This document shows, in pieces, positions 32-2,368 of a DNA stretch of 64,000 bases. The first letter of the stretch is position 1. Each line of letters starts with the position of its first letter. Source of the DNA: Eledone cirrhosa (lineage: Eukaryota); assembly GCA_964016885.1 (NCBI GenBank), contig OZ024742.1, forward strand, positions 86,180,001 through 86,244,000, given 5' to 3'. Below the pieces are notes generated by a model. That model was not told the DNA's origin. It searched no databases and saw only the letters and a list, made by a program, of their open reading frames with translations. A program made the position numbers and the translations under genes.

Positions 32-153
32 TCCAAACAATTGTTTCATTATAAGATTTCTACAAGTTGGGAAAAACGTGTCCAGGTTATGTAGAAGCCT
101 ACACATAGTCCGTAGGAATATATGCAGGTGGGTACTTATAAATCATCAGTGGA
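32..153 (-). ncRNA. Type I hammerhead-like ribozyme with expanded, branched stem II (copy 1)
   Basis: Minus strand reads tcca-CTGATGA-t-ttataag-[~75 nt, two hairpins]-cttataa-t-GAAAC-aatt-GTT-tgga. Stem/loop III is the palindrome ACAATTGT. Stem I is only 4 bp. Confidence 0.6.
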
Positions 154-757
154 TGCCCGTCAAACATCGACATAAAAATATTTTCTTACCGGTATCCAAT
201 GTTCTTCGATGGTCCCCTTCCGTATCAGAATGGCCGCCAAATTTGAAATTCCAGCAGTCTCAGAATGAGAAATTTCACACTGTCATCAAGCGGAAAGGGG
301 AGGTCATCGCGAAACATAAGAAAAGAAAATAATATGCACGCGGGTCAATTAATTCTTTCAATAATTTTAACCTTGCGTGTGAAGAACACAATTAGATTTA
401 AAAAAATAAATATATGCATTTATTATTTATACACGCATATAGGTATTTTCTTAGGCTAAAAACAGAGATATGATACCAGAATAATAATCAATATTTCATA
501 GAAATAATAAATACAGAAAGTTACACTTAAAAGGTATCTGGAAATAATCATCTCTGGCCAAATCAAGAGTATAATATTTAATACATTAACAGAGAGAGCT
601 TTAAGCTATATTCTGACTGGCTTCCATCTCACTCGACAAACATTAGGATATACCTTAGTATAATCTCAATTTTACGTTTGGGGTGCCAACTATATGCATT
701 TTGCGGATAGCCAGTTGCATTATTTTATATGAGACATAATTAAAATACATCTCCCTT

Positions 758-879
758 TCCAAACAATTGTTTCATAATAAGATTTCTACAAGTTGGGAAA
801 AATGTGTCCAGGTTCTGTAGAAGCCTACACATAGTCCGTAGGAATATATGCAGGTGGGCACTTATAAATCATCAGTGGA
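758..879 (-). ncRNA. Type I hammerhead-like ribozyme with expanded stem II (copy 2)
   Basis: Same motif 726 bp away. Core, stem I and stem III are unchanged, with one extra mismatch in stem II. Confidence 0.58.
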
Positions 880-1178
880 TGCCCGTCAAACATCGATATA
901 AAAAAAATTTTCTTACCGATATCCAATGTTCTTCGATGGTCCCCTTCCGTATCAGAATGAACGCCAAATTTGAAATTCCAGCAGTCTCAGAATGAGAAAT
1001 TTCACACTGTCATCGAGCAGAAAGGGGAGGTCATCGCGAAACATTAGAAAATAAAATAATATGCACGCGGTTCAATTAATTTGTACAATAATTTTAACCT
1101 TGCGGGTGAAGAACTCAATTAGATTTAAAAAAAATAAATATATGCATTTATTATTTATACACGCATATAGGTATGTTC

Positions 1179-1256
1179 TTATATATATATATATATATAT
1201 ATATATATATATATATATATATATATATATATATATATATATATATATATATATAT
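1179..1256. repeat. (TA)n microsatellite
   Basis: Pure TA run. Confidence 0.98.
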
Positions 1257-1481
1257 AAACAATTAAGTTAAAAATGTACATCCGCATATGTATACTGAAA
1301 TACTAGTATGCATATGAATACACACACGTATACATATGTAGATGTACCAAGTCTTTCACTGCTTACTTTACTGTGAGTATCCAGCTATTATGTATGTAAA
1401 CACACAGACAAACCGGTTTTTAGAGTCATACTGGTTTTTGAGGAAACACCTTTCCTCTATTCTCCAGAAAGCCAGACAAGG

Positions 1482-1526
1482 AATATTGAACTAGTTTCGT
1501 TGTTGTTACAACTCATCAGCAATATT
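1482..1526 (-). ncRNA. Type I hammerhead ribozyme (left arm of foldback)
   Basis: Exact reverse complement of 1749-1793. Confidence 0.88.
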
Positions 1527-1748
1527 TACCTATCTACCGGCCTTTCTGGAGAATCGTAAAAGCACATATCGTTATATGCTTTTTCTATGAAAATTAGTAG
1601 TGGGCAGACTAATTTGCATAGAGTGTGAGTAAGTACCGGTTCAACGGAGACGATAAAAACAAATAACGAAACGACTACTAATTTTCATAGAAAAAGCATA
1701 TAACGATATGTGCTTTTACGATTCTCCAGAAAGGCCGGTAGATAGGTA

Positions 1749-1793
1749 AATATTGCTGATGAGTTGTAACAACAACGAAACTAGTTCAATATT
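1749..1793 (+). ncRNA. Type I hammerhead ribozyme, PLE-type with minimal palindromic stem III
   Basis: aatattg-CTGATGA-gttgt-aaca-acaac-GAAAC-ta-GTT-caatatt. All core bases are present. Stem I is 7 bp (extendable to 1721-1816), stem II is 5 bp and stem III is ACTAGT. Confidence 0.9.
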
Positions 1794-2083
1794 CCTTGTC
1801 TGGCTTTCTGGAGAATAGAGGAAAGGTGTTTCCTCAAAAACCAGTATGACTCTAAAAACCGGTTTGTCTGTGTGTTTACATACATAATAGCTGGATACTC
1901 ACATTAAAGTAACCAGTGAAAGACTTGGTACATCTACATATGTATACGTGTGTGTATTTATATGCATACTAGTATTTCAGTATACATATGCGGATGTACA
2001 ATTTTAACTTAATTGTTTAAGCGTCAGTCATACAAAAGTGAGTTACAAACGAAACGAAATTTAATTTCGTTTCGTTATTTGTT

Positions 2084-2211
2084 TATATATATATATATAT
2101 ATATATATATATATATATATATATATATATATATATATATATATATATATATATATATATATATATATATATATATATATATATATATATATATATATAT
2201 ATATATATATA
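2084..2211. repeat. (TA)n microsatellite
   Basis: Pure TA run. Confidence 0.98.
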
Positions 2212-2248
2212 GAAAGATTTGAATGGATACAGTTTAGTTGAAAGGAAT

Positions 2249-2368
2249 TTATTGACACGTGTTTCTATAACAGTTACATAACCTAAAACAGCTGCTATCT
2301 ACAAACTTTTAGTTATGCAGACATTCAATATTTCAATGTTATTATTTACTGTCATTTCATCAGAATAA
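2249..2368 (-). ncRNA. Type I hammerhead ribozyme with expanded, branched stem II
   Basis: ttatt-CTGATGA-a-atgacagt-[two hairpins]-actgttat-a-GAAAC-acgt-GTC-aataa. Palindromic ACACGTGT and a canonical GUC triplet. Confidence 0.72.

Follow-up and report, generated by a model that had tools for sequence, protein, structure and literature searches.

The window (the whole 64 000-nt stretch of Eledone cirrhosa contig OZ024742.1 analysed here) contains three extended hammerhead motifs, all carried on the minus strand: two copies of a motif that we designate M1, lying in a non-coding tandem element, and a single copy of another, M2, in the pLTR of a truncated Penelope-like element. Statements from the literature refer, here and below, to the accessible sections of the papers cited. 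The principal features are:

1-1172, minus strand: M1-bearing tandem element, non-coding and retrozyme-like, with a 726-nt unit
32-153, minus strand: M1 copy 1, predicted type I hammerhead whose stem II opens into a three-way junction; cleavage predicted at 36, after GUU
758-879, minus strand: M1 copy 2, one 726-nt unit from copy 1
2211-4445, minus strand: 5'-truncated Hydra-clade Penelope-like element, pLTR with M2, ending in (TA)n
2249-2368, minus strand: M2, predicted type I hammerhead whose stem II forms a rod without branches (2266-2356); cleavage predicted at 2254, after GUC
4445-3322, minus strand: C-terminal part of the RT-endonuclease ORF, with a frameshift near 3697 and a 3' UTR of about 950 nt

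Hammerhead cores and host elements

A sequence-only reading of this DNA had put M1 and M2 forward as one structural subclass with intact CUGAUGA and GAAAC cores and a palindromic stem III. The cores and palindromes were confirmed in both copies of M1 and in M2: CUGAUGA lies at 149-143, 875-869 and 2363-2357, GAAAC is present, and the stem III palindrome is ACAAUUGU in M1 (37-44 and 763-770) and ACACGUGU in M2 (2255-2262), the cleavage triplets being GUU and GUC, respectively. Stem I is short (4 bp in M1, 5 bp in M2) and has no closing loop, and 95 nt (M1) or 91 nt (M2) separate the core halves CUGAUGA and GAAA. Both motifs thus show the CUGAnGA, GAAA and UH core elements, three stems and open stem I of type I hammerheads. 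The base of stem II is, as had been described, a mismatch (U.U in M1, A.A in M2) followed by a helix of 7–8 bp, and the G10.1–C11.1 pair usual at this place is absent from both; U.U at the foot of stem II is known among natural hammerheads (PMC7229834; PMC3088659). The mismatch does not serve as the mark of a class, however. Among 28 M1 relatives (picked by the analyst for diversity) the foot is G-C in five, G-U in six and unpaired in 17, so that it is not fixed even in M1, and U.U recurs in a short-loop family (L263–L272) that dominates a set of 8056 genomic matches. This last family has a stem II of just 2 bp after the U.U and the same palindrome, ACAAUUGU, as M1; palindromes common to different families could permit mixed dimers.

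The 8-nt palindromes, each with a second copy near by (tandem M1 units, paired M2 pLTRs), are those of dimer-type Penelope hammerheads: the computed duplex between two copies is worth –6.4 and –10.3 kcal/mol, and the monomer hairpin +2.4. Folding of the sense strand is better than that of shuffled sequence for all three motifs (z –3.5, –2.4 and –2.7), whereas for the two motifs whose opposite strand was also folded, that strand does no better than shuffles (z –0.9 and –0.3). M1 and M2 are, in terms of these predicted structures, dimer-type hammerheads of Penelope-like retroelements in which stem II has grown to a structure of 60–110 nt.

The M2 element in the window is 94–99% identical (tblastn) to a full-length one (L211), in which an M2, a 765-aa ORF and a second M2, 3.55 kb on, are flanked by (TA)n. 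By eye, the ORF shows RWK, DKT, CxxC and CxH motifs, the last two around E/N, with GIY-YIG at the C terminus, and the CxCX5C linker is seen in sister copies, L211 itself having a short deletion there; Pfam assigned no family to it. RWK, DKT, CxCX5C, CxxC, CxH and (TA)n insertion are listed as characters of the Hydra clade (Craig et al., 2021; PMC8557442). On these sequence features M2 belongs, as the ribozyme of the pLTR, to a young Penelope-like element of the Hydra clade, and the association with such elements suspected at the outset holds for M2. At least 40 identical 176-nt M2 copies are present on one contig; the family is very young and its ORFs are intact, and it is therefore suitable for biochemistry.

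The M1 tandem has its start next to a (TA)n run, and it extends about 150 nt beyond the left edge of the window. Across the genome, M1 units are non-coding, 726–1009 nt long, and occur in (TA)n as monomers, partial tandems and dimers. A non-coding tandem with one type I hammerhead per unit is what characterizes the non-LTR retrozymes, and to judge from its sequence the M1 element fits such a retrozyme with a larger unit. Animal retrozymes resemble it also in their dispersed copies (PMC7229834; bioRxiv 10.64898/2026.07.22.740005), but their units are of about 300 nt (PMC7229834), whereas the M1 unit is larger and has a branched stem II. No autonomous partner was found among ORFs near M1 loci; the neighbouring ORFs in L030, L220 and L223 proved to be separate insertions. 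About four of 49 M1 5' ends lie close to the upstream cleavage site (roughly –2 to +12), other pile-ups being equally large, and a genome pattern for 5' ends at the cleavage site gave seven matches against two controls, without a control position.

Two different folds of stem II

Both inserts had been read as a pair of hairpins, and their similar lengths as a sign of one selected structural subclass. In M1, a branched arrangement is indeed predicted, stem II opening into two hairpins with pair probabilities mostly near 1:

98-128, minus strand: M1 hairpin A, 13 bp with one mismatch; pair probability about 1.0
58-96, minus strand: M1 hairpin B, predicted fold of 7 bp with a 25-nt loop

The three-way junction thus stood, with compensatory changes, but the first hairpin is not the one originally drawn (cctac/gtagg). 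The latter has a pair probability of 0.0, compared with about 1.0 for 98-128, and in the 28 relatives 79% of its cells are paired, compared with 83% over 14 pairs, seven of them covarying, for the longer hairpin. In the same 28 sequences hairpin A shows two-sided changes at seven of its 14 pairs, one of which is C-G in 15 and U-A in 11, and 40 covarying cells against 20 in shuffles that ignore kinship (0/500); the signal was weaker in 46 closer copies taken earlier (nine cells against 0.8, by shuffles of the same kind). Hairpin B is paired in 98% of cells, and shows little covariation because its sequence is nearly invariant. In M1 copy 2 the base of stem II is weakened by an A-to-U change, its pair probability reaching at most 0.39, and in one M1 copy 18 nt are missing from hairpin A.

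M2 folds differently. Its predicted stem II is one long irregular hairpin of –26.8 kcal/mol, against –13.0 for the two-hairpin fold, the proposed stems of which (acatt/aatgt and tgcataac/gttatgta) have a pair probability of 0.0; the two-hairpin topology was therefore abandoned for M2, and with it the notion of a topology common to both motifs. The 18 distinct M2 copies sampled are too alike to decide by covariation, having no two-sided changes for either fold, and 99.1% of cells are paired within the family for the rod and 95.6% and 96.5% for the two-hairpin stems; because of this, the choice of the rod rests on energy and on the sister families. The covariation sought for the class as a whole was obtained for M1 hairpin A and for one of these sister families, but not within M2 and little in hairpin B. 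Copies of M2 of about 88 nt lack 3 nt of the rod. A module of conserved unpaired positions is predicted within it:

2283-2337, minus strand: M2 rod module, with a bulged A (2337), then UU opposite AG (2283-2284)
distal part of the same module, minus strand: about 9 bp further on, G-AAU (2323-2326) opposite UAG-C (2294-2297)

The sister family in question (cluster 1; 38 sequences, 70% identity) has a rod in which 14 of 23 pairs have changed on both sides, with 117 covarying cells against 41.8 in shuffles that ignore kinship (0/500), and in which the bulged A, the facing AG and the letters of the internal loop are invariant or nearly so. Compensatory changes here and in M1 hairpin A argue that the predicted pairing of the arms is a selected structure, kept under divergence, as the earlier reading had supposed for its subclass. 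A descriptor of the module was matched by 17/19 M2 sequences, 26/38 of cluster 1, 3/5 of cluster 5 and the single sequence of cluster 9, against a background of 1–13 in 5000 shuffles and four in 8720 random windows (one of these four sits within a decayed hammerhead of another family); the match to M2 is partly circular, because the descriptor was written after seeing M2. It was matched by none of two sets of M1 sequences (0/49 and 0/13), nor by clusters 3 and 4, so that M1 and M2, with their two different folds, do not form one subclass. Unchanged, it found two of ten sequences from families discovered later (shuffles 1/3000), missing the other eight, and one of ten further cluster 9 copies; with the central helix relaxed, these became 3/10 and 8/10. 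When the cluster 1 inserts were made into a covariance model, neither M2 nor M1 was detected at E≤5, the only matches being weak ones to clusters 9 (E 0.75) and 5 (E 1.9).

The distance from the bulged A to the internal loop is fixed at 7–9 bp among families that share only about 42–53% identity in the endonuclease region. In a tree of endonucleases (16 rows, from this genome only, each cluster 1 branch being linked to its endonuclease at one locus only), M2 is united with cluster 5 and the two cluster 1 branches in one clade (100/99). Two further families with long arms form a loose group in another part of the tree (81/74), and families whose arms are of 26–36 nt fall outside. From these sequences, the module would most simply have been inherited within one lineage and kept under constraint, rather than being convergent, and long arms as such appear to have arisen more than once.

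Abundance, detection and relation to known hammerheads

It had been anticipated that standard models would miss such motifs, and they do. The Rfam hammerhead families (clan CL00010) gave no match to M1 or M2 at the gathering score or at E≤10, although they detected two short hammerheads lying between them (1466-1537 and 1738-1809; HH9, E 3e-7, below gathering). The published descriptor for Penelope hammerheads (stem II ≤7 bp, loop 2 of 3–10 nt) cannot return long-arm motifs (Cervera and de la Pena, 2014; PMC4209133). Genome patterns made of the core, a 60–121-nt spacer and a palindrome were run over the 3.0-Gb, (TA)n-rich genome, the chance rate being gauged from reversed patterns. Five patterns gave 4700, 2857, 2541, 894 and 2298 matches, against 7, 0, 4, 9 and 7 for their reversed controls, or 13 290 long-arm sites against 27; in three samples of the hits, both stem I and seven of eight positions of stem II were found in 12/30, 30/30 and 25/30. 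Because the patterns missed two core variants, these counts are lower bounds. The variants are CCGAUGA, seen in a long-arm hammerhead of cluster 7 (L232, about 430 nt past the ORF), and possibly UUGAGAA (U3-A8), in another family (L239 3' end; about 7700-7780 in the window). Forty 10-kb stretches taken at round-number positions held 11 hammerheads (none in the reversed DNA), with spacers of 14 nt in seven cases and of 20, 49, 51 and 82 nt in the others. Over all loci the spacer between core halves forms a continuum of 11–116 nt, with M1 and M2 towards its upper end, and their similar length is one point on it, not the sign of a subclass. Outside this genome, a metagenome protein scan found no relative, and a metagenome DNA pattern scan (2/64 parts) gave 117 loci, none of the 77 with a true palindrome having both stems.

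Earlier work has described the hammerheads of Penelope elements, their cleavage as dimers, the Hydra clade and retrozymes; the giant structured stem II appears to be new. Published Hydra-clade hammerheads are alike in being type I and in lying in pLTRs; their stem III is likewise short, the foot of stem II often has an additional or mismatched base, and the (TA)n targets and protein motifs are the same, but those tabulated, including Hydra-1_oBim, have a loop 2 of 3–10 nt, compared with 60–116 nt between core halves, with conserved internal motifs, here (Craig et al., 2021; PMC8557442, File S2). The longest loops in that table, of about 30–35 nt, belong to spike-moss PLE-X1. The minimal Penelope hammerheads share helices II and I of 7–8 and 4–5 bp, the palindromic loop III and the model of cleavage as a dimer (PMC4209133). 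In the accessible literature on Penelope hammerheads and retrozymes, a partial coverage outside which earlier examples may exist, no structured stem II of 60–110 nt is described, and there are no such arms in the available sections of PMC6765202, PMC3088659, PMC2377424, PMC3846280, PMC10085705 and PMC6155905. As at least some 13 000 sites escape Rfam and the published descriptors, surveys, and reports that retroelements have no hammerhead, are likely to undercount.

The long insertion of the mammalian Clec2 hammerhead is in stem I rather than in stem II. This discontinuous ribozyme is like M2 in having a long insertion and an adjoining polyadenylation signal, but the insertion is of hundreds of nucleotides and the ribozyme is part of a host mRNA (PMC6765202).

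What the extended arm may do

The ends of copies bear on whether the RNA being copied is cut. M2 copies end 40–49 nt (29/65) or 150–159 nt (30/65) after the cleavage site, contig depth drops past the second of these ends, and M1 copies end 180–199 nt after it in 36 of 50 cases. Because the ends are at fixed points downstream of the cleavage site, the templates are likely to have kept an uncut ribozyme. An AC-rich hairpin at about 1840-1885 of L211, just before the second fixed M2 3' end, resembles the stem-loop at which reverse transcription starts in PAc, a Poseidon element of the anole.

Helices that drift around fixed unpaired letters, as in cluster 1, usually point to a protein or tertiary contact. 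In PAc, the hammerhead cleaves only when the element protein is present; two internal sites serve as starts of reverse transcription, the template is mainly uncut RNA, and the required region begins at stem II (Frangieh et al., 2024; PMC11167929). The M2 element resembles PAc in its two fixed 3' ends past the cleavage site, its AT-rich targets and its probably uncut template; it differs in that the PAc ORF starts at stem II, whereas the first ATG of the M2 element is about 210 nt after the cleavage site, and no extended arm is described for PAc in the available part of that paper. The arm of M2 and its sister families may be a binding handle for the RT-endonuclease of the element, gating cleavage; this is the reading that we prefer, with nearly as much credence as doubt. 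The protein would bind at the bulged-A/internal-loop module, would hold the ribozyme uncut on RNA that is being copied, and at other times would help it to fold and to cut through a two-copy stem III, copying presumably proceeding from the uncut RNA. M1, with its three-way junction, would then be a separate solution, in a non-coding tandem that borrows a Penelope-like protein. The wider proposal, that the module lets an element's own RT decide whether an RNA is cut or copied and that a non-coding parasite has reached a different, branched arm for the same job, seems to us possible but rather more doubtful.

Several other explanations have to be set against a protein-binding arm. Stem II might simply be a position open to growth, where arms are lengthened by local duplication or insertion and selection keeps no more than the ability to fold back, which leaves the core free to form, the motifs being inherited and not functional. 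The continuum of lengths, the several unrelated folds and the tolerated losses (18 nt from hairpin A of an M1 copy, 3 nt from the rod in the shorter M2 copies) are all in keeping with this, as is the treatment of hairpin-forming long insertions as hammerhead-compatible (PMC10085705), but fold-back alone predicts that helices should be better conserved than unpaired positions, the reverse of what is found, and it leaves unexplained a spacing that stays at 7–9 bp between families with such divergent endonucleases; we consider tolerated growth unlikely, though it deserves to be kept in mind. An RNA-only role is less probable still: the internal loops would dock on the flanks of stem I or on the partner ribozyme, in place of the contact between loops I and II that Penelope hammerheads with a short stem I lack, and would make cleavage faster at low magnesium. 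Some 13 bp or more separate the module from the core, the usual loop I–II contact being nearer, and by eye the stem I flanks contain no partner sequence conserved across families. Such a substitute would nevertheless suit a stem I of only 4–5 bp without a closing loop, in view of the loop I–II contacts that make canonical hammerheads fast and the slowness of minimal Penelope forms in vitro (PMC4209133; PMC3088659).

The remaining alternatives take the conserved letters as signals of another kind. If the YAG conserved on the 3' side of the arm were a splice acceptor, splicing might remove part of the ribozyme or shorten stem II, and so switch cleavage off or on, in the manner of the intron that touches the Penelope hammerhead of Drosophila virilis. 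By eye, M2 has GTAAAT after the 5' strand of stem II and TTTTAG or TTTTCAG before the 3' strand, and excision of the 67-nt span between would yield a tidy, compact hairpin; in M1 a GGTAAGA some 45 nt upstream is conserved and a run of pyrimidines precedes TGTAG, and Penelope elements are known to keep introns (PMC4209133; PMC2377424). Yet the M2 donor reads GTTGAT or GTTGAA in older subfamilies, the AGs fall inside predicted helices, neighbouring positions covary in cluster 1, and cluster 1 has no conserved branch A or pyrimidine tract, so that we think splicing distinctly improbable. The lack of any genomic match to short-loop M2 copies also counts against it, but weakly, as these elements retain introns. 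Contigs of four sequencing runs, of unknown kind, had no joints over L211:1525-2300, which is no evidence either way. Least credible, in our view, is that the letters are DNA-level promoter or 3'-end elements, the arm controlling access to AAUAAA like the R region of an LTR. M2 does have TATAAA 25–55 nt upstream in 21/23 copies (background 2.2%) and AATAAA ≤22 nt downstream in 23/24 (background 1.8%), and the 3' strand of its stem I is the AAUAA of this AAUAAA hexamer; but AATAAA, present in many M2 sister families, also follows arms of 20–27 nt, neither signal accompanies M1 (AATAAA in 0/57), and covariation, together with G-U pairs and folding specific to one strand, speaks for structure in the RNA.

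It counts against a binding handle that the extension is not needed for mobility, because other Hydra families, here and in print, have short arms. The hammerheads of Penelope-like elements cut poorly alone, and one needs the element protein; their role is an open question, for which an arm with conserved unpaired positions offers a concrete site to mutate.

Some further observations concern the same DNA. Over L211:1525-2300, contigs of one small sequencing run (X5) carry 20 T>C against six A>G differences; if the run is RNA, the excess of T>C could reflect A-to-I editing of the antisense strand, though alleles would give the same picture. In the window, 1256-1601 and 1674-2019 form a 346-nt inverted repeat (99%) with a short dimer-type hammerhead in each arm (cores at 1519, minus, and 1756, plus), and are pLTRs of another Penelope-like family, arranged as an inverted pair. 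One family has two more short hammerhead-like motifs, at 5560 and 9999 (both minus), the former just downstream of an endonuclease remnant (5771-6422) that we take to be Neptune-like, and decayed Hydra-like ORFs, 29–49% identical to the M2 protein, occupy 15796-17855 (minus) and 54614-55991 (plus). CUGAUGA occurs also at 3202 (minus), in the 3' UTR of the M2 element, where the descriptor found no complete hammerhead, and, again with no complete hammerhead, in repeats at 13430, 13962 and 20613 (plus) and 20541 (minus). Past the ORF of another locus (L248) there is a tandem array of about 45-nt units, each with a CUGAUGA or CCGAUGA half core and no GAAA half.
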